Shown: positions 7,199 to 37,019, counted from the first letter of the stretch. The stretch is 64,000 nucleotides of DNA from an uncultured Candidatus Saccharibacteria bacterium (GCA_965231105.1 OZ246417.1:512908-576907); one strand, 5' to 3'. Notes: generated by a model from the sequence alone, not told the origin. Made by a program: numbers and translations.

Positions 7199-8551
7199 AT
7201 GAATCCTGAGGTTTTCACCTACCATGCCTTTCAAATCGGGGCAGATGGGCAAACCGTAGATTTTACGTATTCTGTTGATCATGCGGGAGAACATCATACA
7301 TTCACTGAACAACTTCGATTTCCTCTTGCCTTAACACCAACCTACGAAACTCAAGCCGTACTCCGGGCCCTTCATATTGCCCTTGGCATTAGTTATTACA
7401 AGCTCTTTTTGACTCCACAGATAAAACACCCTTATAGCCTTAGTAATGAAGCAGCACATTTCTGGAACAAAGTATGGGAAAACGGCTTAAGCGAGTTTTT
7501 ATACACCAATAAATTAAGTAGCGATAAGCTTGCTCAGTTTACCGCTCAAGAAGGAACCAGTCCCACCGGCGATAAAACCAATACATGGGCAGATAAAGCA
7601 CTCCTTGGTATAGGCGGAGGTAAAGATTCGATTGTGGGTGGAGAACTGCTCAAACAGTCCGTGGTAGCAATTGAAGGTTTCGTGATGGCTACAGGTGAGC
7701 AGTTAGGGCAGACTAAAGCAGTCGCTGATACAATGGGAATTCCTCTTCATGCGATCGAACGACGCATTGATCCAAAACTTATAGATCTTACGAAGCGATC
7801 CGATGCCTATAAGGGCCACATTCCTATCTCCCTCATTTTTGGGTTAGTGGGAGCACTACTTGCAGTAGCTCATAGTGCTCGGTTTGTCATCGTCGCCAAT
7901 GAGGCCAGTGCCAGCACGCCACGCATAGATTGGAATGGACAGGCAGTAAATCATCAGTGGAGCAAATCATTTGAAGCAGAAAAACTCATACAGACCTATC
8001 TCCATCAAAATGTCTCTTCAGATCTTACCTACTTTAGTGCCATACGACCTCTGAACTCAGTGGTGATTGCAAAGATTTTTGCACAGTATTCGCAATATTT
8101 CGAAAAGTTCACGAGCGATAACTTTGTGTTCCGCGTGGATCCAAGCAAGCGACCTGAGGGACGCTGGGGATTAGAAAGCCCCAAATCATTAAGTAGCTTT
8201 ATCCTTTTAGCTCCATGGCTCAGTGAGGACGATTTACTTAAGATCTTCGGCAGGAATTTCTTAGATGAAAAGCACCTTGAAGATCTTTTTTTGCGACTCG
8301 TTGGCAAAAAAGATCATCCACCTTTAGATTGTGTCGGCACGGTCGATGAGCTCAAAGCTTCTCTTAACTCAACGATACAGCAAGGAAAGTTTATTGATTC
8401 CCATTTAGTAAAGATGGTGCTGGAAGATGAATTTGTAAGTCCTGATAAGCCAACCGTCGAGAAGTTTCTTGATCTCGAGAGTGAAGAAGCATTTCCACCT
8501 TCCTTACGAGAAAAACTTATCAAAACCATGAGTAAAGGCATTACTTCATGA
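7199..8551 (+). CDS. PP-loop-like ATP-utilising protein; candidate MurL-type UDP-MurNAc-L-Ala-L-Glu epimerase
   Basis: 450 aa with LGIGGGKDS (an SGGxDS-like PP-loop). Its stop overlaps the murD start (ATGA), so the two are translationally coupled. The function is inferred from context. Confidence 0.4.
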   Translation: MNPEVFTYHAFQIGADGQTVDFTYSVDHAGEHHTFTEQLRFPLALTPTYETQAVLRALHIALGISYYKLFLTPQIKHPYSLSNEAAHFWNKVWENGLSEFLYTNKLSSDKLAQFTAQEGTSPTGDKTNTWADKALLGIGGGKDSIVGGELLKQSVVAIEGFVMATGEQLGQTKAVADTMGIPLHAIERRIDPKLIDLTKRSDAYKGHIPISLIFGLVGALLAVAHSARFVIVANEASASTPRIDWNGQAVNHQWSKSFEAEKLIQTYLHQNVSSDLTYFSAIRPLNSVVIAKIFAQYSQYFEKFTSDNFVFRVDPSKRPEGRWGLESPKSLSSFILLAPWLSEDDLLKIFGRNFLDEKHLEDLFLRLVGKKDHPPLDCVGTVDELKASLNSTIQQGKFIDSHLVKMVLEDEFVSPDKPTVEKFLDLESEEAFPPSLREKLIKTMSKGITS

Positions 8552-9819
8552 ACTGGCCATTAGAGCAATTTAAAGGCAAGTCTGTGGTGTTTGTAGGTGT
8601 TGGACAAGGTCGATCTATGACCGGGTTTAAATCGTTTATTACGCCACATGGTGATATCAAAGATTTTGAAGGTGTCGATAAGCACGAAGGGTCGGATCCT
8701 CTTGGCTTTCTGAAAGAGTACAACCAGGCCACCACTATATTTATTAAGAACGAGGCCATTCCACCAGATGAAATGCCCGTACCCTATGTAACTCCTATGA
8801 ACGTATTCTTTAGTTGTGTTAAAGCCCTCGGCGCACAAACGGTAGGCATTACCGGCACAAAAGGCAAAAGCACTACTGCCGCTCTCGCAGCTGCCATGCT
8901 TCAAATGGACGGACGTCATGTAGTCTTAGGCGGTAACATTGGCGAATTTGGGGAATCACTTTTTGAGCATCTAGATGATGCCACGAAAGAAACCATCTTC
9001 GTTATTGAACTTTCAAGCTACCAACTTGCGGACATAGAACATAGTCCGCATGTGTCTGCCTGTATCAACCTTTATAACGATCATTCCGATTGGCACGGGT
9101 CTAAACAAGATTACTGGCACGCAAAGAAAAATATTATTGCTTATGCCCAAGCCGATGATCTTTTTATCTATAATCCGACCTTTCCTGAGTTACAGCAATG
9201 GGCAGAAACCGCGCTATGTAGAACGCAAGCGATCGACATCAATGAAGATATTGATATGGAAAACACCGTACTATACGGAGAACATAACCGTCTCAATGCC
9301 CTAGTTGCCCGTGCAGTGGCCCGTGAATTTAACGTTACTGATAATGCTAGCCAGAAGGCACTCGACATGTTTAAGCCGCTCCCCCACCGCATGGAATTTA
9401 TCCTCGAGAAGAATGGGCATATATATATCGACGACGCAATTGGCATGACCCCCGAATCAACAACTGCAAGCTTACAAGCGGTAGCCGCACGATATGGTCA
9501 GGTAGGCTGCTTACTTTTAGGCGGGCAGGACCGAGACTATGACTTTACGGAACTGTTTAAAGTTATTGCTCAGCACGGCATTCCAACCCTTGTGCTTTTT
9601 CCCGACACGGTAGAGAAGATGAAAGCCGCTATTCCTTCAAACTACGAACCAGAGATTTTTGAAGCAAAGAATATGGAAGAGGGCGTTAAGTGGGCTAGCG
9701 AGCATGCGCCAGATAACAGCGTTATTCTTTTAAGCACCGCTGCACCGAGTTATTCGCTTTGGAAAAAGGGCTTTGTTGAAAAAGGTGAAAAGTTTGTAGA
9801 AGCCGCCGAGGCTCTGTAG
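8548..9819 (+). CDS. murD: UDP-N-acetylmuramoyl-L-alanine--glutamate ligase (MurD family; possibly the MurD2 type)
   Basis: Mur ligase P-loop GITGTKGKSTT, N-terminal Rossmann-like VVFVGVGQGRS, 423 aa. Confidence 0.85.
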   Translation: MNWPLEQFKGKSVVFVGVGQGRSMTGFKSFITPHGDIKDFEGVDKHEGSDPLGFLKEYNQATTIFIKNEAIPPDEMPVPYVTPMNVFFSCVKALGAQTVGITGTKGKSTTAALAAAMLQMDGRHVVLGGNIGEFGESLFEHLDDATKETIFVIELSSYQLADIEHSPHVSACINLYNDHSDWHGSKQDYWHAKKNIIAYAQADDLFIYNPTFPELQQWAETALCRTQAIDINEDIDMENTVLYGEHNRLNALVARAVAREFNVTDNASQKALDMFKPLPHRMEFILEKNGHIYIDDAIGMTPESTTASLQAVAARYGQVGCLLLGGQDRDYDFTELFKVIAQHGIPTLVLFPDTVEKMKAAIPSNYEPEIFEAKNMEEGVKWASEHAPDNSVILLSTAAPSYSLWKKGFVEKGEKFVEAAEAL

Positions 9820-10715: not shown

Positions 10716-12623
10716 ATGATTAGAAACCCTGAAGAACTGACCAAACCGATCCGCATGGCTGTTGACCGACGTGCAGTGGTGTTTTCGCATGTCTCCTTAG
10801 CCCTTGTTCAAATTGTTCACACCATTCTTGATCCTGCATCGAATATCTACCACATCATAGCTTCAGGTATTTTTACTGTTATTCTTATTGGTCTGATTTT
10901 TTTGCGAACCTTCGATATGTTGCGTATTAATACCAGGCCCTTGATGTATCTCATCATCTTTAATATTGTTGCGTTTGCGGGTATTGGCTTCGTATCTGAT
11001 CCAGCTACTCCTTATGCAGTGGTAATGTTCTTTATCGTCTTCTTCAGTAACCTCTACTACGGTGCCCCCGGTGTATGGATAACCGTTGCGCTCTTTGGTA
11101 TTACTACAGTATTTAAGGCTCTCTACTATGGCTTTGTAGAAGGTGGAACACTTGTTGATCAGATGAATATCATCGCTACATTCCTCGTCTTTGCGGCCAC
11201 GTGTAGCGTGTTTGTAAACATTCAGAAAGTGTTTGATTGGGACCGTGCGCGCTTACACGACACTATTAAAGAGGCCCTTGTTGAGCAGCGACGCTTACGT
11301 GCGCTCATCAACAACATGACAGAAAGTGTGTTGGTTCTTGATAAAGAGGGGATCATCCGTCTTTATAACGCCGCTGCACTTGCACTTTTTGATACCAATA
11401 ACAGTTTGAGCGATAAGCCCTTAGATGGCTTTGCCAAATTAGAGGATGAAAAAGGTAAGATCATTACCGCTTTTGATCTTATGCCTAAAGATACACGGCC
11501 TATTATCCGAAGCGATATTATGCTGCGCTACGGCAGTGATGACACTGCCGCTTTAAGCGTAGTGGTAACGCCTATTCGTTCTACTTTTGGGCAAGAAAAA
11601 GACGAAGCAGGTTTCGTTATGACGCTGAGAGATATCACCAAAGAAAAATCCCTCGAAGAGGAACGAGACGAATTTATCTCTGTTATTTCTCACGAGCTAC
11701 GTACCCCTGTAACCGTTGCCGAAGCCGGCGTGTCTAATGCTCTTCTTTTGGTTGAAAAGATAGAAGGTAATGAAAAAATTAAGGATTCGCTCAAAACAGC
11801 CCACGATCAGTCGGTCTACCTGGCCAACATGCTGAACGACCTTACTACCTTTGCACGAGCCGAAAAGGGCACGCTTGAACTTAATCTTGAAGAGTTTGAT
11901 CCACGCGAAATGCTTGAGCAATTAATGAATGATTACCATAAAGCGGTTGAGGCCAAAAAGATGGCTATTCGCTTTGTGGCTGATCCTTCAACACCCTTGC
12001 GAATGGCTTCGAACCGTCTTTATATTCGGGAGATTTTGCAGAACTTTATTACAAATGCCATCAAATACAGCGATAAGGGCACTATTACCTTGTCTGCCCG
12101 GGCAAAAGATAACGGCATTTTATTTAGCGTTGCGGATGAGGGTATTGGTATTTCCACCAGCGATCAGAAGAAAATCTTTGAGAAATTCTTTAGAGCTGAA
12201 GATTATCGCACCCGTTCAACCAATGGTACTGGACTTGGACTCTATATTACTAAGAAGCTGGCAAAGATATTGGATGCCCGTTTTGAAGTACAAAGTGAAG
12301 TCGGTAAGGGTTCTACCTTCTCTATTTATGTCCCAGATAAAAGTGATGTATTGGCTGCCAAGAAGCAGGCCGAAACTCAGGAAAAGGCTCCTGCAACACC
12401 TCCCCAAACACCACCCGCTCCTTCAACCCCTGCGCCAACACTTACTCCTCCGCCAACTCAACCAGCTCCTCCTGCTGCCTCTCCCGCCCCTGTTTCAGGC
12501 TCAACGCTTTCTCCTTTATCACCATCGGTAACAGGTCTCGCCTCCTCGCCCTCGACTACGCCACAACCAGCACCTGCTGCACCAGTCGCTGCGGCAAGCT
12601 CAAATACTATCCCTTCAATCTGA
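10716..12623 (+). CDS. membrane sensor histidine kinase (PAS-HisKA-HATPase) with a Pro-rich C-terminal tail
   Basis: H-box ISHELRTPVT, N-box NAIKYS, DEGIGIS, GTGLGLY. A PAS-like segment (MTESVLVLDKEGIIRLYN) and 5-6 N-terminal TM helices are present. Confidence 0.9.
   Translation: MIRNPEELTKPIRMAVDRRAVVFSHVSLALVQIVHTILDPASNIYHIIASGIFTVILIGLIFLRTFDMLRINTRPLMYLIIFNIVAFAGIGFVSDPATPYAVVMFFIVFFSNLYYGAPGVWITVALFGITTVFKALYYGFVEGGTLVDQMNIIATFLVFAATCSVFVNIQKVFDWDRARLHDTIKEALVEQRRLRALINNMTESVLVLDKEGIIRLYNAAALALFDTNNSLSDKPLDGFAKLEDEKGKIITAFDLMPKDTRPIIRSDIMLRYGSDDTAALSVVVTPIRSTFGQEKDEAGFVMTLRDITKEKSLEEERDEFISVISHELRTPVTVAEAGVSNALLLVEKIEGNEKIKDSLKTAHDQSVYLANMLNDLTTFARAEKGTLELNLEEFDPREMLEQLMNDYHKAVEAKKMAIRFVADPSTPLRMASNRLYIREILQNFITNAIKYSDKGTITLSARAKDNGILFSVADEGIGISTSDQKKIFEKFFRAEDYRTRSTNGTGLGLYITKKLAKILDARFEVQSEVGKGSTFSIYVPDKSDVLAAKKQAETQEKAPATPPQTPPAPSTPAPTLTPPPTQPAPPAASPAPVSGSTLSPLSPSVTGLASSPSTTPQPAPAAPVAAASSNTIPSI
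12357..12620 (+). repeat. low-complexity Pro/Ala/Thr/Ser-rich tail (~88 aa) appended after the kinase ATPase domain
   Basis: Translation reads PATPPQTPPAPSTPAPTLTPPPTQPAPPAASPAP... Confidence 0.8.
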
Positions 12624-12666: not shown

Positions 12667-12695
12667 TTGACTATTTTGCAATAAATTGGTATACT
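12667..12695 (+). promoter_or_regulatory. sigma70-type promoter of the cslA-like/glxA-like operon
   Basis: TTGACT(12667)-N17-TGgTATACT(12690-12695). This predicts an ~75-nt leader before the ATG at 12776. Confidence 0.6.
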
Positions 12696-12775: not shown

Positions 12776-14530
12776 ATGCCCTACACACGTACCCCTAAAT
12801 ATGACTACCGGAAATTCAGTCAGCTGGTTGGACCGCTGAGCCGAAAATTTGGTAAAAATTATCGCGTCAAATATCGACGCCTTACCCGAAAAAGCGACAC
12901 CATAAAGGCGCTTTTGCTCGCTATTGTGAACCTCGGTATGGGTATTACCTTTCTTGTATGGCTATTCCTATCCCTGTTATTTGACCCACGTATTACTGAA
13001 AACGGTTTTACCACCGGCTTCATCATCGTACTTATCGGTATTTTTATCATTGAGAGCTTCCGTATTATCAACACCGCCATTCTCTGTTTTTCGGCGCTCA
13101 CCGCAAAAGATCCAATTCCGGTAAGTCCTGAGCGCGGTACGCGTATTGCCTTTACTACAACTATTGTTCCGAGCAAGGAGCCATTTGAAATTGTCGAGAA
13201 GACTTTACGAGGCATGCTCAAGGTCAAGCACAGTGGCACCCTTGATATTTGGCTGCTTGATGAAGGTAACGACCCAAGCATTAAAAAAGCCTGTGAAGCG
13301 ATGGGCGTACATCACTTTAGCCGTAAGGGTAAGAAAAAGTGGAACACTGAATCAGGTCGTTTTAAAGCAAAGACGAAGCACGGTAACCACAATGCATGGC
13401 TCGCTGCTCATGGCAAGAACTATGATTATGTTCTATCCGTAGACCCAGACCATGTGCCGTTACCTAACTTTGCAAAGCGTTTACTTGGTTACTTCCGCGA
13501 TCCAAATGTGGCATTCGTGGTTGGACCGCAGGTGTATGGTAACTACGATAATCCGGTAACCAAGGGCGCAGAATCACAAGCCTATATTTTCCAGGCAGCT
13601 ATTCAGCGCGCCGGCAACACCTATCATTCCGCCATGTTCGTCGGCACCAATCATGCCTACCGAGTAAAAACTTGGGACGCAATTGGTGGATTCCAGGACT
13701 CCATTACTGAAGATATGTACACTAGTCTCGTTGTACATAGCACGCGCAACAAGGAAACCGGTGAGTTTTGGCGCTCTGTATATACGCCTGACGTGGTGGC
13801 CGTTGGTGAAGGCCCCTCTTCATGGACGGACTTTTTCTCACAACAGCTTCGTTGGTCTCGTGGTTCAAACGAAGTCTTACTCATGAAGTATCTCAAGCTC
13901 TTCTTTAAGCTTCCACTCCGCTCGAAGCTTCACTACAGCATGATCATTTCATATTACCCAACTGTTGCAATTAGCTGGGCGCTCGGCATTTTTGTCAGCA
14001 TGCTCTATCTCGTACTCGGTGAGGCCGGTGTGCAAATTGCTGGTGAAATTTGGCTTGCTCTCTATGTTGATATTTTTGTCGTTCAAATTATGCTTTACGG
14101 CTGGCTCCGTAAATACAATGTGAGTCCACATGAAGAGGCAGGCAGCGTTGGTTTTGCGGGCATGGTCTTCTCTATGCTTTCAGCTCCAATTTATACCACT
14201 TCACTGATCTCAACAGTACTCCGTCGCAAGGTAGGATTCGTGGTCACGCCAAAGGGTGATTCAACCTCACCAGACAACTGGGCAACCTTCAAAAAACACC
14301 TTATGTGGGCGGGTATTGTTGTGATGTTCTTTATCTACAGCATCATCTCTCACAATGTGTATCCAGCCGTTAAGGCATGGTGTCTACTCGTGCTAGCTAT
14401 CTGTCTGGGTCCTGTTATTCAGTGGCAAATAAGCATCTGGCACGAAACAAAGAAGCGTATTCAAGCGTCTTTCAAAGACTCTTTCCGCTTACGTCGTATT
14501 GATCATCAACATATCGAGGAGGCTTCATGA
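12776..14530 (+). CDS. processive family-2 glycosyltransferase, cellulose-synthase-like (CslA/BcsA-like)
   Basis: Motifs DIWLLDEGND, SVDPDH, TEDMYTS and QQLRWSRG (QxxRW). TM helices flank the catalytic domain. Confidence 0.85.
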   Translation: MPYTRTPKYDYRKFSQLVGPLSRKFGKNYRVKYRRLTRKSDTIKALLLAIVNLGMGITFLVWLFLSLLFDPRITENGFTTGFIIVLIGIFIIESFRIINTAILCFSALTAKDPIPVSPERGTRIAFTTTIVPSKEPFEIVEKTLRGMLKVKHSGTLDIWLLDEGNDPSIKKACEAMGVHHFSRKGKKKWNTESGRFKAKTKHGNHNAWLAAHGKNYDYVLSVDPDHVPLPNFAKRLLGYFRDPNVAFVVGPQVYGNYDNPVTKGAESQAYIFQAAIQRAGNTYHSAMFVGTNHAYRVKTWDAIGGFQDSITEDMYTSLVVHSTRNKETGEFWRSVYTPDVVAVGEGPSSWTDFFSQQLRWSRGSNEVLLMKYLKLFFKLPLRSKLHYSMIISYYPTVAISWALGIFVSMLYLVLGEAGVQIAGEIWLALYVDIFVVQIMLYGWLRKYNVSPHEEAGSVGFAGMVFSMLSAPIYTTSLISTVLRRKVGFVVTPKGDSTSPDNWATFKKHLMWAGIVVMFFIYSIISHNVYPAVKAWCLLVLAICLGPVIQWQISIWHETKKRIQASFKDSFRLRRIDHQHIEEAS

Positions 14531-16095
14531 AAAAGCGTCGTATCTTCACTACCCGTCGAATAAGCTATTTTATTGCGACGCTGCTTGTATTAGCAGTTAA
14601 TGCCAACGCCTGGGTTGAACCGGTTGTTGCGCAAGTAGACTATATTTTGTCTAACCGTTATTCCGTAATCATCAAGGATGGTAAGTGGGAAACTGCAAAA
14701 CATAACTCCCCAGTAAACTCAATTCATGCTGCTCTTCTTAATACCGGCAAGGTCCTCCTTATTGCAGGTTCTGGCAACAATGAAAAGCGTTTTGAACAGC
14801 AAAGCTTCCGCTCTGTCATTTGGGACCCTGCGACTGGTGAATTTAAGGATATTCCAACACCATGGGACGCGTTCTGTGCTGGCCACATTTTCCTTCCAGA
14901 CGGCAAGCTCCTGGTTGCTGGCGGTACCAAGGGCTACGAAGACCTTGAGCAAACTCCAAAGCTTGAATTCCAGGGCTTAAAAGATTCCTACATCTTTGAC
15001 CCTGGTACTGAACGCTATGAAAAAGTTGATGACATGAACTTTGCCCGCTGGTACCCAACGCTCGTTGGTTTAGCCGATGGTTCTGTCCTTGCATCTTCAG
15101 GTCTCGATGAGCATGGCAACATCTTATGGGGTCAGACCGAAATTTATGACCCAACAACCAAGGACTGGGTTGACCGTCCTGACTTAAACCGTCCATTCCC
15201 AACATATCCTGCACTTCTCCTTACCAATGATGGCCGTCTTTTCTATAGCGGTTCAAATGCTGGATATGGTTCAACCGAAGTTGGCCGTACACCTGGTTTC
15301 TGGGATTTAAGCAATAACACCTTCCAGGATGTTCCTGGCCTAGAAGAAGCCGACCTCATGGAGACCAGCGCAACGGTTATGCTGCCACCGGCACAAGATC
15401 AGCGTGTGATGGTACTCGGTGGTGGTGGCGTCGGTGACTCACCAGTTGCCAGCGACCGTACTGCTATCGTTGATCTCGATGAAGCCAATCCAAGCTTTGT
15501 GAGCGGTCCAGACCTTAAAGAGGCTACTCGTTATCCAAATGTTGTTATCCTGCCAGACGACACCGTTTTGCAAACCGGTGGCTCACGCGGATACCGCAAA
15601 GACGATGTTCTTGTAACTCAAATCTTTAATCCAAAGACCAATGAATTTAGAGAAGTTGCATCACCACGCGTTGGTCGCAACTATCACTCAGAAGCGTTAC
15701 TGCTTCCTGATGGTCGTGTTGCTACCTTTGGTTCCGACACCCTCGGTGGCCGTTTCGAAATGCGTATTGAAGTCTATTCACCTGCATATATGTTCCGAGA
15801 CTCACGCCCAACGGTGAAGATCGAAAACAAGGAAATTACCCAAGGCGGCAGTTTCCATTTCGATACATCTACCCCGGCCAATATAGCAACCGCTAAGCTT
15901 ATTCGCCCAAGTTCAGTTACGCATGTAACCGATGTTGAGCAGCGTTCAATTACCCTGGACTTCGTTCCAAACGAGACCGGTATTACTGCTACCATCCCAG
16001 AAAATCCAAATCTCGTTCCAGCCGGCTGGTACATGATGTTCGTTACTGACCAGCAAGGCACCCCATCGGTTGCTGAGTGGGTGCACGTTCAGTAG
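14527..16095 (+). CDS. GlxA-like radical copper oxidase (glyoxal/galactose oxidase family with a DUF1929 C-terminal domain)
   Basis: N-terminal anchor. AFCAGH (Cys of the Tyr-Cys cofactor), ARWYPT (Tyr), NYHSEA (Tyr-His ligands), VTHVTDVEQR (His ligand). Kelch-like repeats. A 4-nt overlap with the upstream GT2. Confidence 0.85.
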   Translation: MKKRRIFTTRRISYFIATLLVLAVNANAWVEPVVAQVDYILSNRYSVIIKDGKWETAKHNSPVNSIHAALLNTGKVLLIAGSGNNEKRFEQQSFRSVIWDPATGEFKDIPTPWDAFCAGHIFLPDGKLLVAGGTKGYEDLEQTPKLEFQGLKDSYIFDPGTERYEKVDDMNFARWYPTLVGLADGSVLASSGLDEHGNILWGQTEIYDPTTKDWVDRPDLNRPFPTYPALLLTNDGRLFYSGSNAGYGSTEVGRTPGFWDLSNNTFQDVPGLEEADLMETSATVMLPPAQDQRVMVLGGGGVGDSPVASDRTAIVDLDEANPSFVSGPDLKEATRYPNVVILPDDTVLQTGGSRGYRKDDVLVTQIFNPKTNEFREVASPRVGRNYHSEALLLPDGRVATFGSDTLGGRFEMRIEVYSPAYMFRDSRPTVKIENKEITQGGSFHFDTSTPANIATAKLIRPSSVTHVTDVEQRSITLDFVPNETGITATIPENPNLVPAGWYMMFVTDQQGTPSVAEWVHVQ

Positions 16096-16545
16096 CTAAC
16101 GAGCTCTGATCGAAAACTCAATCGAAGCTTTGTCTCGCAAGTGATCATGCAGGCGATAGTCGCCGGCTTGCAAGGCATCAATAGCGATGAATTCGTTTGG
16201 CCTAATCTGCGTCTCTATATAACCAGGATAGTTTATGTGGCTTTCATACACACCAAATGCAAGCTCGTATATTTGTGTATCTAGATTAACTACCTTAATG
16301 ACGTCACACTGATTAAGGACGAGAGAGCTTTGAGAAAAGGCATCGTCCTTTAGAGTTAGAACGTGTTCAGCACCCGGTAATGCGCACAGTGGTTTCTTCA
16401 AAAAACGGTTGTATGCACCAAATCCCACAAGCACGAGGGTAACCACGATAACCGCTATATCCATTTTGCGCAAACCTAAGAAAGCCCCCTTAGTGGACTC
16501 GGCTTTTTGTTTTGGTTTTACCGACTTTGTAGTTCTGGTGGCCAT
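16096..16545 (-). CDS. small membrane-anchored cupredoxin-like protein lacking the canonical Cys ligand
   Basis: Its pattern (VLTLKDDAFSQSSLVLNQCDVIKVVNLD ... AGDYRLHDHLRDKASIEFSI) parallels plastocyanin-fold domains. The start is ambiguous (16545 or 16464). Confidence 0.5.
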   Translation of the reverse strand: MATRTTKSVKPKQKAESTKGAFLGLRKMDIAVIVVTLVLVGFGAYNRFLKKPLCALPGAEHVLTLKDDAFSQSSLVLNQCDVIKVVNLDTQIYELAFGVYESHINYPGYIETQIRPNEFIAIDALQAGDYRLHDHLRDKASIEFSIRAR

Positions 16546-17669
16546 CGTTCTATTAAACCTATAGCATATTCTGGCCACCAATTGCCAGCTTTTGGTCCAT
16601 TAAAGCACTTATTTGGGTTGGGATCGGAGCCATCAGACTCACCTGGACGTTTAATGTATAAGAAGGCATCAACAAGTGGATGACCAGTCTTCGTGGTAGG
16701 ATGACGACCTAAAGCACGTCCTGGTGGGTTACACCAGTCATGGCTTGGATAAGCCTGATTGTCATAGGGTCCAAGGCCATTTCGTGATGTATCGATCACA
16801 AAATGCTTGCCGTCCAGTAGCCCCGCAATAACTTCACCGAAACGGATCGTATCAACTGTGGTTTGAAAGTTAGAGACATTAAGACTAAAGCCATCTGCCT
16901 TAGCGACACCAGCTTTTTTGAGCGTATCGGCTACACCAGACTGATTCTTGATCCAGTCACTGTTACCAGCATCAACATATACCGTTGTATTCGGTTGGGC
17001 CTTTAGCTTTTCAATGGCGTATTGCATCAGACGCATATAGGCATCTTGTTCTGCCGTACTTAAACAAGGCTGTCCACCATTTTCCGCAAACTGGACATAC
17101 GATAATGCATCTGGCTCAAGAATAATAATTGCCTTTGCATCTCCAATGGCAGCAGCAAATGTATCTATATATGACCGATAATCCGCTTCATCCTTTGCGC
17201 CACCAGCTGAGTATCCCCCGCAATCTCGATGTGGGAAATAATAACTTACCAATACCACAGTTTTGTCGTCCTGTGCTGCGGCAGCCACATATTCGCCCAA
17301 CTGTGCAGCTTCATCTTGGGTATTCACCCAGCGAGCTTGCGGTACGGCGGCCAATACATCCATAAGCTTAGCTCTCTCCGGCTGAGTTTCTCGCCATGCT
17401 GCTGCCTGGGTAGCTGCATTGGAGTCGGGAGAAACGTAGAGTTCAGCGCCTTGCAAGGGGTTTGGAGAGGGATTCAAAATGTGCGCAGCTTCAACCTGCG
17501 GTCCGGTTTGAATCGTTTCCGCTTTTTCGGGCTGTGGAGCAGCGGCTTTGTTGTTAAGAACTACAAAACCCGCAATAAACACCACGACCGCTATAGCTGG
17601 TGCGAGTACAAACGCTTTGCGAGTCGCGATACGCTTTACATACTGGCGCCAATTCTTTACTACCTTCAT
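16518..17669 (-). CDS. glycoside hydrolase family 6 (endoglucanase/cellobiohydrolase-like), membrane anchored
   Basis: GH6 signatures YFPHRDCGGYSAGG, IILEPDALS, IDTSRNG, WCNPPGRALG and IKRPGESDG. The ATG at 17669 has GAGG 4 nt upstream; the track start at 17678 is a TTG. Confidence 0.9.
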   Translation of the reverse strand: MKVVKNWRQYVKRIATRKAFVLAPAIAVVVFIAGFVVLNNKAAAPQPEKAETIQTGPQVEAAHILNPSPNPLQGAELYVSPDSNAATQAAAWRETQPERAKLMDVLAAVPQARWVNTQDEAAQLGEYVAAAAQDDKTVVLVSYYFPHRDCGGYSAGGAKDEADYRSYIDTFAAAIGDAKAIIILEPDALSYVQFAENGGQPCLSTAEQDAYMRLMQYAIEKLKAQPNTTVYVDAGNSDWIKNQSGVADTLKKAGVAKADGFSLNVSNFQTTVDTIRFGEVIAGLLDGKHFVIDTSRNGLGPYDNQAYPSHDWCNPPGRALGRHPTTKTGHPLVDAFLYIKRPGESDGSDPNPNKCFNGPKAGNWWPEYAIGLIERWPPELQSR

Positions 17670-17744
17670 ATACCTCAATCAAAAACACCCTGTTCAGAAT
17701 GCTATATTATTACAGATATAGATTCTAAAAGCAACCCGTAAGTC

Positions 17745-17773
17745 TTGCAAAAACAGGGGTAATTTGCTAAAAT
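17745..17773 (+). promoter_or_regulatory. candidate promoter for tRNA-Lys
   Basis: TTGCAA-N17-TAAAAT, about 45 nt upstream of the tRNA. Confidence 0.4.
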
Positions 17774-17817: not shown

Positions 17818-17894
17818 GGGCCAGTAGCTCAGCTGGTTAGAGCGTCTGCCTCTTAAGCAGAATGTCGAGGGTTCGAGTCCCTCCTGGCCCTCCA
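17818..17894 (+). tRNA. tRNA-Lys (anticodon CTT), CCA encoded
   Basis: Manual cloverleaf: acceptor GGGCCAG/CTGGCCC, anticodon stem TCTGC/GCAGA with loop CTCTTAA, T-arm GAGGG-TTCGAGT-CCCTC. Confidence 0.9.
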
Positions 17895-17945: not shown

Positions 17946-19262
17946 TTATTTGTGGAATACGAGCTTCTTAGCAGTTTCCATGCCACTTTCTAATGCCCCG
18001 TTCATATAGCCCACATCAGCCGCGATATGTTCACCTGCAAAATATAAGTTGCCTGCGTTTTGTTTTAATACCGGCCTTAACTCAAACCACTGTTCGGGCT
18101 GCCATATAGAATATGCACCTCCCGCAAATTTGTCCCTATCCCAACGTTTCTGCAATACCTTTTCTAAATAGACTGTATTTTTCTTCTTAAGCTTTAGTGA
18201 GCGCAGAGTTTCTGCTAACTGCTCTTTTTCATTGAGCTTGTGGAATTTCTTTTGATAATCTCCGAATGTATAACTGTTTAGAGCTCCCCATTTGCTTGCA
18301 CGCTGCCTATCCGTGCTGTGATACACCTGGCATGCCGCAGTGTCGCTGTATACACCTGTCCGTTCTTTTTTCCAGAAGCGCTTGCTGAATATATAAGCAG
18401 TCTTAGTGATGTGGGCATAATCTAATTTCTCAAGCGCAAGCAGTGTTTCCGTTGGGATGCCCGCCTTACTCAAATCAAGGTCCAGAAGCGGCTTTGTGGG
18501 CAAGGTGCAGATAACTTTTTCAGCGGAAAAACTTTTTCCCGTTTCGTCGGTAATAGTTATTTTATCCTTCTTTTGAACAATAGAAGTCGCAACAAAACCA
18601 AGCTTAATTTTATCTTCGCCAATACGTTCAGCAAGTTTATGAACTATCTGGCTGTTGCCGCCGATTACTCGCAAATCATCACCATCCGGTTTATCTTTGT
18701 CTAAAGAAATGTTTCTATATAGCACGCTGTATGCCGACATATCTTTGAGCATGCAACCCATTATTGATCCCATGCGCGCTTGCAAAACTGCTTGAGTAAA
18801 GTCTGAGGTTTTCGTCTGTTTTAAATAATCTTCGAAACTTATTTTGTCGAGCTCGATGAGGCTTTCGGGTGTATACGAATTATTAATTTGACCCAGTAGC
18901 CTACTAAATTGTCTCTGCCATTTTGTTTGGAAGAGGCGACCACCCTCTTTCACATATCGGTCATCCACAAAAAGATCTCTGCCCGCCCTATGGGGAGCTA
19001 ATTCAAGACCCAAGACCCTACACAGATGCTTTATGCGCTTGTGGCCATAGCCAATCCATTCGCCACCAAGCTCAATGGTTAGAGCACCATCGTCAGTAGG
19101 TACAAGCTGGGTAAAGACCCGTCCACCAATACGCTTCCGTGCTTCAAGAATAAGAAAGTTATCTACACCCAGGTTTTTAAGTACATATGCTGCACCAAGA
19201 CCAGCGAGTCCAGCCCCCATAACAATGACATCATAATGTTCTGCTTTTGTAGATTGTTTCAT
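17946..19262 (-). CDS. FAD-dependent amine oxidase family protein
   Basis: N-terminal dinucleotide fold YDVIVMGAGLAGLGAA and C-terminal FAGEH motif. 438 aa. Confidence 0.8.
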   Translation of the reverse strand: MKQSTKAEHYDVIVMGAGLAGLGAAYVLKNLGVDNFLILEARKRIGGRVFTQLVPTDDGALTIELGGEWIGYGHKRIKHLCRVLGLELAPHRAGRDLFVDDRYVKEGGRLFQTKWQRQFSRLLGQINNSYTPESLIELDKISFEDYLKQTKTSDFTQAVLQARMGSIMGCMLKDMSAYSVLYRNISLDKDKPDGDDLRVIGGNSQIVHKLAERIGEDKIKLGFVATSIVQKKDKITITDETGKSFSAEKVICTLPTKPLLDLDLSKAGIPTETLLALEKLDYAHITKTAYIFSKRFWKKERTGVYSDTAACQVYHSTDRQRASKWGALNSYTFGDYQKKFHKLNEKEQLAETLRSLKLKKKNTVYLEKVLQKRWDRDKFAGGAYSIWQPEQWFELRPVLKQNAGNLYFAGEHIAADVGYMNGALESGMETAKKLVFHK

Positions 19263-33163: not shown

Positions 33164-34684
33164 ATGACTACCACAAGCGAAAAAATAGGCAAGTTAATTT
33201 ATCAAGTACGACAAGAAAAAGGCCTAACACAGGCCGAATTTGCGAAACGTTTACAAACCTCACAGTCAGCCGTAAACCGCATCGAACATGGCAAACAGAA
33301 CTTAAGCATGGATATGCTTGGCCGTATTAGTGATGTTTTAAATAAGCAAATTATCAGTCTTAATACTGATGCTATTAATCTTCGTATTGAAGGCGGCCAT
33401 GAATTAAAGGGCGAAATCACACTGAAGCGCAGCAAGAATGCTGCCGTCGCATTATTATGTGCTTCACTTCTTAACTACGGTGTTACCCGCTTTAAAGCTT
33501 TCCCACGTATTGAAGAGGTTAACCGTATTATTGAGGTCCTGGAGAGCATTGGCGTAAAGGTACGTTGGTTACCGGGCAATGATCTTGAAATTCGTCGGCC
33601 TGCTGAGCTTAAACTCGATAGTATCAACGCGCATTCCGCTCGATTGACCCGAAGTGTACTTATGCTTCTTGGTCCACTGATGCACGACTACTCAAACTTC
33701 AAAATTCCCTATGCCGGCGGCTGTAAGTTAGGCACACGAACTGTAGCGCCTCACCTATTCGCACTGGAGCAATTCGGCATGGATGTCGTTGCCAAAACGG
33801 GTCACTATAACGTAACAGTTAATAAAAAGGCTGCAAATCATCTCATCCTTTATGAAGCCGGTAATACCGTTACCAATAATGTACTTATGGCAGCTGCACG
33901 AACTACTTCAGAAACAATCATTCAAGGTGCAAGCGCTGATTATATGGTGCAAGATTTATGTACGTTTCTTAAGCGTCTTGGCGTAAAGATAGAGGGAGTC
34001 GGCTCACCCGTACTGAAAGTAACGGGTGTACCAAAAATAAAAAAGAATATTACCTTTGCCCCTACTGAGGATCCGATTGAAGCGATGTTCTTTATTTCTG
34101 CGGCAGTCGCCACCAATTCACAGCTTACCATCCGCCGTGTGCCTATTTATTGGATTGGCCTAGAGCTCTTAAAACTTAAGAAGATGGGTCTTAACTATAA
34201 GACAAGTAAGTCTTATCCTGCCGATAACGGTATTACTGAACTCGCAGATATCACCATCTATAAGCATGATGGCAGCTTAAAAGCACTCAGTGAAAAACTC
34301 CATCCAAATCTATGGCCGGGTATTAACCCAGATAATATTCCCTATTTTGTACCAATTGCTGCTGTCGCTGCCGGACGCACACTGATTCACGACTGGATGT
34401 TTGAAAACCGTGCCATCTACTACACCGAAATGACTAAGATAGGCATGAATATTGAGCTTGCCGATCCACACCGTATTTATATTAATGGTCCAACTAAATT
34501 TAGCCGGGGAGATGTTGTTTGCCCCCCTGCCCTTCGCCCTGCAAGTTTGCTCCTTATTGGTATGCTTGGTGCCGAAGGTTCCTCTACCTTACGCAATGTC
34601 TATACCATTAATCGTGGTTATGAAGATCTTGCCGATCGCTTAAATAGCCTCGGCGCTCATATTACTGTCGTACACGAAGTTTAA
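33164..34684 (+). CDS. murA: UDP-N-acetylglucosamine 1-carboxyvinyltransferase fused to an N-terminal XRE-type HTH domain
   Basis: Residues 1-65 are an HTH (GLTQAEFAKRLQTSQSAVNRIEHGKQN). The remainder is the MurA/EPSP-synthase fold with the catalytic-Cys loop YAGGCKLGTRTV. Confidence 0.85.
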   Translation: MTTTSEKIGKLIYQVRQEKGLTQAEFAKRLQTSQSAVNRIEHGKQNLSMDMLGRISDVLNKQIISLNTDAINLRIEGGHELKGEITLKRSKNAAVALLCASLLNYGVTRFKAFPRIEEVNRIIEVLESIGVKVRWLPGNDLEIRRPAELKLDSINAHSARLTRSVLMLLGPLMHDYSNFKIPYAGGCKLGTRTVAPHLFALEQFGMDVVAKTGHYNVTVNKKAANHLILYEAGNTVTNNVLMAAARTTSETIIQGASADYMVQDLCTFLKRLGVKIEGVGSPVLKVTGVPKIKKNITFAPTEDPIEAMFFISAAVATNSQLTIRRVPIYWIGLELLKLKKMGLNYKTSKSYPADNGITELADITIYKHDGSLKALSEKLHPNLWPGINPDNIPYFVPIAAVAAGRTLIHDWMFENRAIYYTEMTKIGMNIELADPHRIYINGPTKFSRGDVVCPPALRPASLLLIGMLGAEGSSTLRNVYTINRGYEDLADRLNSLGAHITVVHEV

Positions 34685-35880
34685 GACTTAGAAACGTCTT
34701 GAAGTACGGCGTCAGTCAGCTGGTAGCGACGACCTTCAGTCGTCCAGCCCTTAACTTCTTGCTGGAATTTCTTCAGCAGCATGACCTCAAAGAAAGCCAT
34801 AACATAGATACCAATCTCAAGCCATCGAAGGAAATAGAAGTATGGCAAAGCACCTAAAAGATTCCAACGCTTAATCTTTGCTGAAGCTATGATAGCAATA
34901 AAGCCATTCAATATAACATCGGCGGCAATTGCTACTGGCAAAATCATCCAGTTACCGGTATATGCAATGACGAGTGGTATAAGAATAAATAACTGCAAGA
35001 AGAATACGATTGTTTGCGCCATTTGAAAGCCAAGACTGATATCAATTCGGTTTAGACCGCGACCGATCTTATACTTCTTTACGCCTTGGAAGAATCCACG
35101 TTGCCATCGCAAGTTTTGCTTGCAGAAATCTTTTAGCGTCTGTGGATCTTGCGTATAGTTAATTGCTCCAGGAATAAAGACAATTTTACCTAAGTTCTTA
35201 CGGTGCACCTGCAAGGTAATATCAAAGTCTTCAGTTAAACTGTTACCGGTAAATTCAAGCTGAGATAGAATATCTGTTCTAAAAGATGTAATAGGGCCAG
35301 GAAAAACAGAGATCATGTTTAGCCAAGACTGGACACGACGGGCAACATGCTGACTGTAGGTATAGGTTAATGCACGGTATGTACTAATCCAGTTACCACG
35401 CATGCTTTGCACAAAACCAACGGCAACTGCATATTTTTTAGAATTAAGCTTGCGCTTGTATACACGGAAATAATCCGGCGAAAAGATACTGTCTGCATCT
35501 GCAACATGGAGCCACTCGTACTGCTTCTCGATATCAAAATACTTAATGGCTTTTAAAACCGCTCCCGCTTTACCACTCCGCTCGACGGTCAGCACATTAT
35601 GTGCCCCCAATGATTCAATAGCGAGCTTTCGCGTATTATCGCTTGAGTTATCATCAACAACATAAATATCACGCTTAGGCTGACCTGCAGCGATAGCTGT
35701 CTGGATAGTAGTGGCAATGATGAGTTCTTCGTTATGACCAGGCAATAGTAAGGCCATCTTACGACGACGACCACGCTTTAAGGGACGCGCAGGAGGAACG
35801 TTACTTGCCAGCGCGGCACCGCCCAGTACGAGTTTTGTAAACTCAGAAGGCTGCTTCTTTTTTGATCGATTCTTCTTCAT
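34681..35880 (-). CDS. processive family-2 glycosyltransferase (PgaC/IcaA/NodC-like) with C-terminal TM helices
   Basis: Motifs VVDDNSSDNT, ADADS, LTEDFD and QNLRWQRG (QxxRW). Confidence 0.85.
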   Translation of the reverse strand: MKKNRSKKKQPSEFTKLVLGGAALASNVPPARPLKRGRRRKMALLLPGHNEELIIATTIQTAIAAGQPKRDIYVVDDNSSDNTRKLAIESLGAHNVLTVERSGKAGAVLKAIKYFDIEKQYEWLHVADADSIFSPDYFRVYKRKLNSKKYAVAVGFVQSMRGNWISTYRALTYTYSQHVARRVQSWLNMISVFPGPITSFRTDILSQLEFTGNSLTEDFDITLQVHRKNLGKIVFIPGAINYTQDPQTLKDFCKQNLRWQRGFFQGVKKYKIGRGLNRIDISLGFQMAQTIVFFLQLFILIPLVIAYTGNWMILPVAIAADVILNGFIAIIASAKIKRWNLLGALPYFYFLRWLEIGIYVMAFFEVMLLKKFQQEVKGWTTEGRRYQLTDAVLQDVSKS

Positions 35881-35992
35881 ATCAGGTTTAACGCGTCTTT
35901 AAGACACTGCTGCCTTTTGCCAGCAAAACCACTCACTTTACAGGCAGTATTTTATCATATTTTTTATAAATTTGCAAGATTAATGCTTACGT

Positions 35993-36574
35993 TTATTCGA
36001 CGCGAGCAAAATCAAAGAAATAGAGCTGGCGATTCTGCATCCAAGCCCCTGAGCAGGTCTGAATAGTAAGCTGTGGAACCCCTTGATATGCCAATATATC
36101 GACATTACTTGGATCAACTGTTTGTGTCTCGCGGTATATATAGGTAAATCGGTGCCCGTTATCAGTGGTTATAGTTACTTCTGATCCTACGGTTATTTTC
36201 TTTAAGCGCGCAAAAACTTCAGGACGGTAGTGACCATAGATAAAGGTATTGCCTTGCTTATTGTTCGGCTGCACTGTTGCAAGCGCATAGTGAGCTTTAT
36301 CCTTGGACAGTGACCACGTTTTTGAGGATTCGTTATAAATGCCATCTGCAATGGCAAGCTCGAGGTCTAGGCTTGGAACACTGAGATGAGTCGGCTTGCC
36401 GGTGATCAAGTCAGGTGCAGGCGGTAGTTCTGCCTGAATAGGAATCTCAATAACACTCGCCGCAGCTATTCTGTTTTGGTTCCAAAAATAGGCATACGGC
36501 AAGAGTGCGGCTAACCCTCCGAGGATGGCCACCGCTGAAATGATAAATAAAATCTTGTGTAAATGCTTCTTCAT
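35993..36574 (-). CDS. sortase family transpeptidase
   Basis: N-terminal anchor, His motif FIYGHY, catalytic TLxTC-like motif LTIQTCSG and a C-terminal Arg. Confidence 0.85.
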   Translation of the reverse strand: MKKHLHKILFIISAVAILGGLAALLPYAYFWNQNRIAAASVIEIPIQAELPPAPDLITGKPTHLSVPSLDLELAIADGIYNESSKTWSLSKDKAHYALATVQPNNKQGNTFIYGHYRPEVFARLKKITVGSEVTITTDNGHRFTYIYRETQTVDPSNVDILAYQGVPQLTIQTCSGAWMQNRQLYFFDFARVE

Positions 36575-36592
36575 AAATGGTCTTGGTGAAAC

Positions 36593-36622
36593 AAAAAAGC
36601 GACCCTTGCGAGCCGCCTTTTT
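36593..36622 (-). terminator. weak hairpin with U-run between the mini-LPXTG ORF and the sortase (possible partial terminator)
   Basis: 5-bp GC stem flanked by A6 and T5-6 runs, 20 nt upstream of the sortase ATG. Confidence 0.35.
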
Positions 36623-36658
36623 GTTTCGAGCGTAAGTGCTAAATAAGCCTAAAAAAGC

Positions 36659-36820
36659 TTATTTTGCTTCGCTGCGGCTCTTGCGAGCCAATACGGCGGT
36701 GATAACCATGATCACAACACCGCTGGCAATTAAGCTGACAGCTGCGATAAACAGCGGACGGCTATTGCCAGTTGCAGGAAGCACAGAAACGCCAGCTACT
36801 GTAGGAAGTTTTCCGTACAT
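36659..36820 (-). CDS. 53-aa micro-protein consisting essentially of an LPXTG sorting signal (LPATG + TM helix + basic tail)
   Basis: Not in the ORF track (<60 aa). My translation is MYGKLPTVAGVSVLPATGNSRPLFIAAVSLIASGVVIMVITAVLARKSRSEAK*. SD AAGGGAGG lies 7 nt upstream, and a consensus promoter lies further upstream. Confidence 0.7.
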   Translation of the reverse strand: MYGKLPTVAGVSVLPATGNSRPLFIAAVSLIASGVVIMVITAVLARKSRSEAK

Positions 36821-36890
36821 GCCTTTGGCCTCCCTTAACTTTACTGCTTAGAATCCCACGGGGTTACGCCCAGGTAACTCTTGGACGGTG

Positions 36891-36919
36891 ATTATATGTG
36901 TTTTATGACATTTTGTCAA
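36891..36919 (-). promoter_or_regulatory. perfect-consensus sigma70 promoter driving the mini-LPXTG ORF
   Basis: Minus strand: TTGACA (36919-36914)-N17-TATAAT (36896-36891). Confidence 0.7.
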
Positions 36920-36965
36920 TATACTTTTATTAAAGCTTATGCATATTGGGGTATGTAAAATATCT

Positions 36966-36994
36966 TTGACATTTTTGTTAAATAGTTGTATCAT
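36966..36994 (+). promoter_or_regulatory. promoter of the carbohydrate-binding-repeat/CE4 gene
   Basis: TTGACA-N17-TATCAT, followed by SD AGGAG before the ATG at 37020. Confidence 0.6.
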
Positions 36995-37019
36995 TACGTA
37001 CAAATTTAGGAGTTGCCAA

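Follow-up and report, generated by a model that had tools for sequence, protein, structure and literature searches.

In Streptomyces lividans, the processive glycosyltransferase CslA and GlxA, a radical copper oxidase, act as a complex that produces cellulose in vitro, and this machinery has been described as "conserved in streptomycetes" and linked to growth at hyphal tips (PMC11022532). The hydrolase CslZ, with LpmP, aids passage of the glycan across the cell wall (PMC9040799). For maturation, Streptomyces GlxA depends on two copper chaperones, Sco and ECuC, and on a peroxidase, DtpA; in Frankia, a gene for Sco is part of the locus itself (PMC4736821). Here we describe a related locus in a 64-kb stretch (the window) of the genome of an uncultured Candidatus Saccharibacteria bacterium. 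The region is probably a functional four-gene, membrane-associated β-1,4-glucan (cellulose-like) synthase cassette of the CslA-GlxA-CslZ type, maintained in environmental Saccharimonadales. All identity values, profile searches and trees reported below were derived from DNA and protein sequences.

Genes of the cassette and their products

The first gene, on the plus strand at 12776..14530, encodes a 584-aa CslA-like processive family 2 glycosyltransferase (GT2), recognized from its open reading frame (ORF) and from Pfam and NCBIfam matches. The second (14527..16095, plus strand) encodes a 522-aa GlxA-like radical copper oxidase with an N-terminal membrane helix, a seven-bladed kelch propeller and a C-terminal E-set domain. 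The stop codon of the first and the start codon of the second share 4 nt (ATGA), with a Shine-Dalgarno sequence, GAGGAGG, positioned ahead of them within 14516-14530, an arrangement that indicates co-translation of CslA and GlxA. Convergent on this pair, on the minus strand, are the gene for a CslZ-type, endoglucanase-like family 6 glycoside hydrolase (GH6; 16518..17669; 383 aa from the ATG, with PF01341), for which the ORF listing extends the start to a TTG at 17678, and a fourth gene (16096..16545; 149 aa), the product of which has a cupredoxin fold as judged by AlphaFold2 (AF2) modelling and Foldseek. The stop codon of the fourth gene abuts the glxA stop codon, and its first 28 nt overlap the 3′ end of the GH6 gene. 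Hydropathy plots place transmembrane (TM) segments, N-terminal or multiple, in all four products. The first-pass annotation of this DNA had reported the 4-nt overlap and a GH6 operon converging on the pair; the ORFs, the ATGA and the operon are all there, but the second gene of that operon, at 16096-16545, had been overlooked.

The GT2 has the motifs LLDEG, DPDH, TED, QQLRW and FVVTPK at residues 160, 223, 311, 356 and 488, respectively. Aligned with CslA from Streptomyces and Frankia, residues D162, D223xD225-H226, T311-E312-D313, Q356-Q357-x-R359-W360 and F488-VVT-x-K493 are invariant, and these positions also align to BcsA. There are profile matches to PF13632, PF13641 and TIGR03030 CelA (92.6 bits), and the BcsA structures 4HG6 and 5EJ1 match residues 78-520 with 72 bits. 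Hydropathy predicts two N-terminal and approximately four C-terminal TM segments around a cytoplasmic GT-A domain; the chain ends ~30 residues past the last TM segment, without the low-complexity C-terminal tail of the actinobacterial CslA proteins. The Pfam and NCBIfam searches gave no match to PilZ or BcsB. Identity to the CslA encoded at Streptomyces and Frankia loci is 48-53% (tblastn) versus ~28% to BcsA, and CslA from Streptomyces and Protofrankia aligns with the GT2 across the whole catalytic and TM core at 48-50% identity. A second GT2 encoded in the window has merely 26-29% identity to Streptomyces and Frankia CslA, over 79-109 aa. By these measures, the nearest homologues of the cassette GT2 are the glxA-linked actinobacterial CslA proteins and not BcsA or other GT2 enzymes, and it is paired with glxA in all relatives whose contig allows a check.

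In the GlxA-like protein, the motifs FCAGH (at 116), RWYPT (174), NYHS (385) and THV (465) supply Cys117, Trp175-Tyr176, Tyr386-His387 and His466, which align to Cys121, Trp288-Tyr289, Tyr501-His502 and His589 of S. lividans GlxA (PDB 4UNM); Cys117, Trp175, Tyr176, Tyr386, His387 and His466 are invariant in 31 relatives. The NCBIfam GlxA equivalog NF052501 matches in two stretches with 705 bits (E = 8e-212), and Pfam assigns PF09118 with 84 bits and PF07250 (Glyoxal_oxid_N) with 28.7 bits, under the cut-off of 37.5. The best solved relative, 4UNM (543 bits), likewise aligns in two pieces, leaving ~110 of its residues unmatched (chain ~116-224, GlxA ~146-254). Domain 2 of S. lividans GlxA occupies aa 143-260 (PMC11022532); it corresponds to Pfam PF21110 (GlxA beta-barrel), which is absent from all short GlxA forms, the window protein among them; the first-pass annotation had not noted this lack. 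Frankia and Protofrankia also have such short, PF21110-less proteins, of ~530 aa and with 52-55% identity to the window form over the full length, whereas Streptomyces GlxA proteins are 645-650 aa. Overall, identity to the Streptomyces and Frankia counterparts is 52-57% (tblastn). The AF2 model (pLDDT 86.7) has 4UNM as its top Foldseek match (TMq 0.89, E = 5e-57), with fungal galactose oxidase at TMq 0.76 (E ~1e-32), and its N-terminal helix at 7-42, with a hydrophobic segment at 12-30, matches the known membrane anchor.

The GH6 protein has PF01341 (233 bits) as its sole domain, with no carbohydrate-binding module (CBM), and the motifs RDCGG, EPDAL, DTSRNG, WCNPPG and PGESDG are located at 148, 185, 293, 312 and 342. 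The invariant residues are R148-D149, E185-P186-D187, D293-G298, W312-P316 and G343-x-S345-D346-G347, so the catalytic acid of RDC is kept. The N-terminus has a TM signal-anchor (~20-38) that looks uncleaved; alignment reveals no lipobox in the window protein or its relatives, versus LLLAGCS in Streptomyces CslZ. Identity to the homologues encoded at Streptomyces and Frankia loci is 43-47% (44-47% for in-locus Streptomyces CslZ), and the best PDB match, Mycobacterium tuberculosis Cel6/CelA1 (1UOZ, 220 bits), is comparable to that obtained with CslZ sequences (234-247 bits). A neighbour-joining (NJ) tree places the window-type GH6 proteins in a clade with 85% bootstrap, next to which, as sister group, stand the in-locus CslZ proteins of actinobacteria. 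The gene lies just 3′ of glxA on the opposite strand, as in Streptomyces loci, but with the 149-aa gene intercalated. The first-pass annotation had named a cellulose-synthase-like GT2 with D, DxD, TED and QQLRW motifs, a GlxA-type oxidase retaining every cofactor and ligand position and a GH6 glycosidase with the five motifs listed above, and had taken the three as homologues of actinobacterial cslA, glxA and cslZ. Every motif was located, the oxidase residues agree column for column with 4UNM and throughout the 31 relatives, and the homology is upheld by the tblastn identities and by the same neighbours in Streptomyces and Frankia loci.

Conservation of the cassette and its fourth gene

Searches by tblastn with the window proteins covered ~50 Streptomyces loci and ~70 high-GC metagenome loci. 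A scan of GTDB with exact-peptide patterns from GlxA recovered almost only Streptomyces and missed both the genome of the window and most Saccharimonadales; a metagenome scan returned mostly high-GC long GlxA forms and added four low-GC loci and a large actinobacterial control set. In the ~120 high-GC loci, CslA is encoded 5′ of GlxA; GH6 is directly 3′ on the opposite strand in most of them, and in every Streptomyces locus inspected. The same convergent arrangement of cslZ is documented in the Streptomyces literature (PMC9040799), and the initial statement that the gene order in the window is unlike that in Streptomyces was wrong.

The cassette is present in ten distinct low- to mid-GC loci, with different flanking genes in each. 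The carriers include CP023991.1 (L056), which is a complete 1.0-Mb environmental Saccharibacteria genome (PMC8386444), a 693-kb scaffold, 232-kb and 72-kb contigs and others, and one relative (P0005) is on a contig annotated as Ca. Saccharimonadales. In type A loci (the window, L056/L060, L057, L058 and L140), GT2 is followed by GlxA with the cupredoxin and GH6 genes convergent, and L061 has its cupredoxin gene in the same direction as glxA. Type B loci (L004, L071/L072 and L141) have GH6 5′ of GT2, with the cupredoxin gene still convergent on glxA. In L142 (a contig of P0045, GC 0.53), the GT2, GlxA and GH6 genes are co-directional, there is no cupredoxin gene, and the GlxA branches away from the other short forms. 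These low-GC loci bear out the expectation that the three originally recognized genes would be co-conserved, and the constant core is GT2 plus GlxA plus, almost always, the cupredoxin gene, with some GH6 recruited. The GH6 in the type B loci belongs to another clade, nearer to M. tuberculosis CelA1 and to one member of the Frankia GH6 pair in L059, implying that a non-orthologous glucanase has taken the place of the other in the cassette.

The flanking genes include, in L056, those for a GH5 cellulase, a trehalase and a polysaccharide lyase and, in L057, those for a GH8 (BcsZ family) protein, divergent from GH6, a protein with Amidase_2 and SLT domains and cytochrome oxidase subunits. Six high-GC loci (L078, L080, L081, L092, L111 and L126) encode short GlxA-like oxidases with 45-49% identity and have no CslA or GH6 neighbours. 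These seem to form their own family of bacterial copper radical oxidases and, with neither CslA nor GH6 nearby, were rejected as donors of the cassette.

The 149-aa product of the fourth gene has one TM helix (~27-49) followed by an extracytoplasmic cupredoxin-fold domain (60-147), modelled by AF2 as an eight-strand β-sandwich (pLDDT 87.6). The top Foldseek matches are the Bacillus anthracis Cupredoxin_1 structures 4HCI and 4HCF (Cu-bound), amicyanin and the Cup domain of EfeO (E ~2e-6, probability 1.0), and plastocyanin is also matched with probability 1.0. For Cupredoxin_1 and EfeO, the TM-scores to the target are 0.64-0.70, with a root-mean-square deviation of 2.2 Å for EfeO; the structures nearest to the model include both Cu- and Zn-bound Cupredoxin_1. 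PF13473 scores 14.3 bits in the window protein (threshold 27) and 29.2 bits in the orthologue P0134. Near-invariance of Cys54, Cys80, His103, Tyr106 and His133-Asp134-His135 extends from the orthologues to 159 representatives drawn from a much larger family. The members of this family inspected here (P0124-P0283) are uncurated, single-TM proteins of ~135 aa with the signature C...C...H..Y.G...HDH.

The gene is present in nine of the ten distinct low-GC loci and in none of the ~120 high-GC (actinobacterial) loci, in which a hidden Markov model of the protein detected no copy even at E ≤ 1. It adjoins the 3′ end of glxA in eight of the nine distinct low-GC carriers, wherever GH6 is located; in the other, L004, it is ~700 bp 3′ of glxA, past an uncharacterized ORF.

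Proposed function and alternatives

The cassette most likely makes and exports a β-1,4-glucan, the identity of the product being presumed from that of the homologous systems. CslA would polymerize UDP-glucose at the cytoplasmic face of the membrane and thread the chain through its own TM channel. GlxA, anchored through its N-terminal helix and coupled in translation to CslA, would be the obligatory extracytoplasmic partner of the synthase, as in S. lividans, and the membrane-anchored GH6 may trim the chain or open a path for it through the wall. The cupredoxin-fold protein would handle copper or electrons for GlxA maturation, namely Cu loading and formation of the Tyr-Cys radical cofactor, in the manner of Sco, ECuC and DtpA or of the Frankia Sco. 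The polymer could serve in adhesion to a host or substrate, as in the attachment device suggested at first pass, in aggregation or in envelope protection.

Several observations weigh against this reading. The NF052501 score of 705 bits is below the NCBI cut-off of 800 bits because domain 2 is missing, and without domain 2 the window GlxA does not have the three-domain architecture. No homologues of LpmP, StlP, SCO2835, Sco or DtpA are encoded within the 64-kb window. Deep support in the NJ trees is weak, 38-56% for CslA and 11-61% for GlxA. With regard to the fourth gene, the type-1 His/Cys/His/Met ligand set is absent from its product, in which the C-terminal loop has His133-Asp134-His135 and Cys54 and Cys80 are elsewhere, and a profile built from the family found no match among PDB sequences. 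The wider family comprises 1485 clusters (50% identity, E ≤ 1e-3); at this size its members cannot all be GlxA-linked and most must lie outside GlxA loci. Finally, L142, a low-GC relative, has the core genes without the cupredoxin gene.

The points concerning the fourth gene, namely the missing type-1 ligands, the lack of sequence matches to solved cupredoxins, a family far exceeding the GlxA-linked set and the gene's absence from L142, also favour an alternative that retains the core synthase and has a substantial, if minority, chance of being correct: the cupredoxin-fold protein might be a structural or glycan-binding β-sandwich, guiding the nascent chain as BcsB does, or simply an unrelated neighbour. 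Its conserved aromatic residues Tyr93, Phe97, Tyr106 and Tyr130 could bind sugar. However, the nearly invariant His103, His133-Asp134-His135 and Cys pair resemble a metal site and a disulfide and, by secondary-structure register, are positioned at the metal-carrying end of the cupredoxin fold; the nearest structures include Cu- and Zn-bound Cupredoxin_1 and the EfeO Cup domain, and the Frankia locus holds a gene for a copper chaperone. We infer that the protein most plausibly handles copper or electrons for GlxA, a role in maturation being suggested because its gene is set against glxA, because Streptomyces GlxA has the maturation needs noted above and because Sco is encoded in the Frankia locus.

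It is much less probable that the module is offensive or nutritional, the GT2 having an unrelated role and the GH6 and the copper oxidase being directed at an actinobacterial host, whose wall or cellulose-like glycan they would attack at sites such as hyphal tips. Cultivated Saccharibacteria do grow on other bacteria, largely Actinobacteria (PMC9040727, PMC9894109), CslZ is promiscuous and can cut peptidoglycan, cellulose and chitin (PMC11022532), and glycan-degrading genes (GH5, GH8, polysaccharide lyase, SLT/amidase) are found near the cassette in relatives. But the GT2, which is coupled in translation to GlxA, retains every motif of a processive synthase, including the gating loop; the part of the cassette that does not vary is GT2 with GlxA, whereas the GH6 varies in position and even in subfamily; and the GH6, with no CBM, is tethered to the membrane of its own producer.

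Host genome and origin

The GC content of the window is 44%, many of its ORFs match no Pfam family, and it carries peptidoglycan genes. An identical GlxA is encoded on a 903,164-bp NCBI contig, and the same locus sequence with its flanks was assembled independently from three runs. The genome had been described at first pass as reduced and CPR-like (resembling the candidate phyla radiation), which is reasonable for one that is small and low in GC and has relatives in ~1-Mb Saccharibacteria genomes.

A sigma-70-like sequence at 12667..12695 on the plus strand (TTGACT-17-TATACT with an extended TG; 10 of 12 consensus matches) lies ~80 nt 5′ of the GT2 start, and a consensus scan placed a second promoter-like site (9 of 12 matches) at 17722..17751 on the minus strand, 5′ of the GH6-cupredoxin operon. 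Sites of this kind are not more numerous in the region than in shuffled sequences, and both are weak promoter candidates. A tRNA-Lys(CTT) gene (17818-17894, plus strand) separates the GH6 gene from a gene for a flavin amine oxidase (17946-19262). Just 5′ of the cassette, at 10716-12623 on the plus strand, is a gene for a histidine kinase that ends in a Pro/Thr/Ala/Ser-rich low-complexity tail of ~90 aa; it was rejected as a dedicated regulator of the cassette because every relative has other flanks.

Elsewhere in the window, at 7199-9819 on the plus strand, a MurL epimerase (NF041275, 268 bits) is encoded directly 5′ of a Mur ligase, representing the MurD2/MurL-type D-Glu route for peptidoglycan, and a MurA (33164-34684, plus strand; NF006873, 303 bits) has an N-terminal XRE-type helix-turn-helix, so that, unusually, a peptidoglycan enzyme is joined to a DNA-binding domain. 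The region at 34681-39635 is possibly a second surface-polysaccharide module, with genes for a 399-aa GT2 (weakly PgaC/IcaA-like), a sortase-like protein (35993-36574) and a secreted protein of 898 aa that combines CBM_4_9 with a polysaccharide deacetylase (HfsH-like) domain.

The GC content of the module (0.44-0.48) is close to that of the window (0.443 ± 0.022), with actinobacterial loci at ~0.70, and its codon-usage distance is inside the spread of the window genes. No flanking direct or att-like repeats were found around the module, despite the adjacent tRNA-Lys. The short-form GlxA relatives form ~48 clusters, diverged to 52-70% identity, several of them on low-GC contigs of 0.2-1.0 Mb. 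From the native GC and codon usage, the lack of flanking repeats and the divergence of the relatives (to 57-70% identity), any transfer must be old, and a genomic island was rejected for want of att-like repeats and of any GC or codon anomaly.

Phylogenies were constructed as NJ trees, that of CslA being rooted on BcsA. In the GlxA tree, the short and long forms are separated with 100% bootstrap, the long forms and the Frankia-type short forms each have 100% support, and the deep nodes have little. In the CslA tree, the low-GC clade nests inside the high-GC diversity, which is monophyletic in only 4 of 100 replicates, and joins the Frankia-type pair in 111 of 200 replicates. A Frankia-like actinobacterial source of the cassette is, on these trees, weakly favoured and would be consistent with shared loss, or primitive absence, of domain 2. 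The cassette presumably shares ancestry with the Frankia-type systems and was exchanged between phyla long ago, the direction of transfer being suggested by the nesting of the CslA clade. The first-pass proposal of horizontal acquisition from an actinobacterial host thus has weak support from the NJ trees, but a recent event is contradicted by the native GC and codon usage and the diverged relatives. The weakest alternative, that the locus is mis-assembled or mis-binned actinobacterial DNA, or so recent a transfer as to be uninformative on the lineage, could draw on the fact that the closest characterized homologues are all actinobacterial and on the tRNA-Lys flanking the GH6 side, as tRNA genes are common integration sites, but is essentially refuted by a GC of 0.44-0.48 versus ~0.70, native codon usage, absent direct repeats, the recurrence of an identical locus with its flanks in three independent assemblies as well as on a 903-kb contig, and the ~48 diverged short-form clusters, several of them on such large low-GC contigs.

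A more specific scenario would be that environmental Saccharibacteria took the cassette from their actinobacterial hosts, that the β-glucan is a glue or sheath at the epibiont-host interface and that the cupredoxin-fold protein is a dedicated GlxA maturation factor, a copper insertase or one-electron oxidant, that replaced Sco, ECuC and DtpA in a minimal genome. As a whole this is speculative and we regard it as rather unlikely.

Comparison with known systems

The CslA-GlxA-CslZ type of system is known; what is new is the phylum, the GlxA without domain 2, the TM-anchored GH6 and the lineage-specific cupredoxin-fold component. Full-text literature searches for Saccharibacteria together with GlxA, cellulose synthase, galactose oxidase or GH6 turned up no description of the system, and a large survey of Saccharibacteria genomes does not mention cellulose, GT2 or copper. 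The presence of an intact, long-maintained copy in ~1-Mb, ultrasmall, non-filamentous bacteria argues that the system has no intrinsic tie to a filamentous way of growing. It appears to be a natural minimal version, with no domain 2, no LpmP or StlP in the sequenced neighbourhood and one small accessory protein, and could be used to dissect the contribution of GlxA to the synthase. It also suggests a glycan-based surface function in Saccharibacteria, in which type IV pili have so far been credited with host attachment (PMC9894109; bioRxiv 10.1101/2024.11.25.624915). The cupredoxin-fold family, with >1,000 clusters, no curated family and an invariant HDH, is uncharacterized, and the locus provides a testable hypothesis for its function.

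For the fourth component, the closest described proteins are Cupredoxin_1 (PF13473; B. anthracis 4HCF/4HCI) and the EfeO Cup domain, which have the same β-sandwich, are extracytoplasmic and bind metal in the solved examples. The 149-aa protein differs from them in having no Cys/Met copper ligands, a sub-threshold Pfam score and its own signature, C...C...H..Y.G...HDH. The proteobacterial BcsA-BcsB-BcsZ system resembles the cassette in having a processive GT2 with the D, DxD, TED, QxxRW and FxVTxK motifs, an obligatory extracytoplasmic partner with one TM segment and a dedicated endoglucanase. In the window, however, the GT2 has ~28% identity to BcsA, there is no PilZ and no BcsC, the partner is a copper radical oxidase rather than BcsB, and the glucanase is a GH6 rather than a GH8.

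Much closer are the cslA-glxA-GH6-GH6-sco loci of Frankia and Protofrankia: their GlxA is likewise short and domain-2-less, their CslA is, in the rooted NJ tree, the closest among those of actinobacteria, and they include a copper-handling gene, the role proposed here for the fourth gene. They differ in that GH6 is co-directional and duplicated, the copper factor is Sco1/SenC rather than a cupredoxin-fold protein, CslA has 766 aa and a long tail, and the GlxA linker has a 5-residue "PDG" insertion that the window form is without. Relative to the Streptomyces cslA-glxA-cslZ system (SCO2836-2838 / SLI_3187-3189), the window GlxA is without domain 2, its CslA is without the long low-complexity tail, its GH6 is TM-anchored rather than having a lipobox, a cupredoxin-fold gene is added, lpmP, stlP and SCO2835 are not present upstream, and the host has a ~0.9-Mb, 44% GC genome and is not a filamentous actinomycete. 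The two nevertheless have the same three families in the same order and orientation, the same catalytic and cofactor residues, a GlxA with an N-terminal TM anchor and a membrane-associated GH6 without a CBM.

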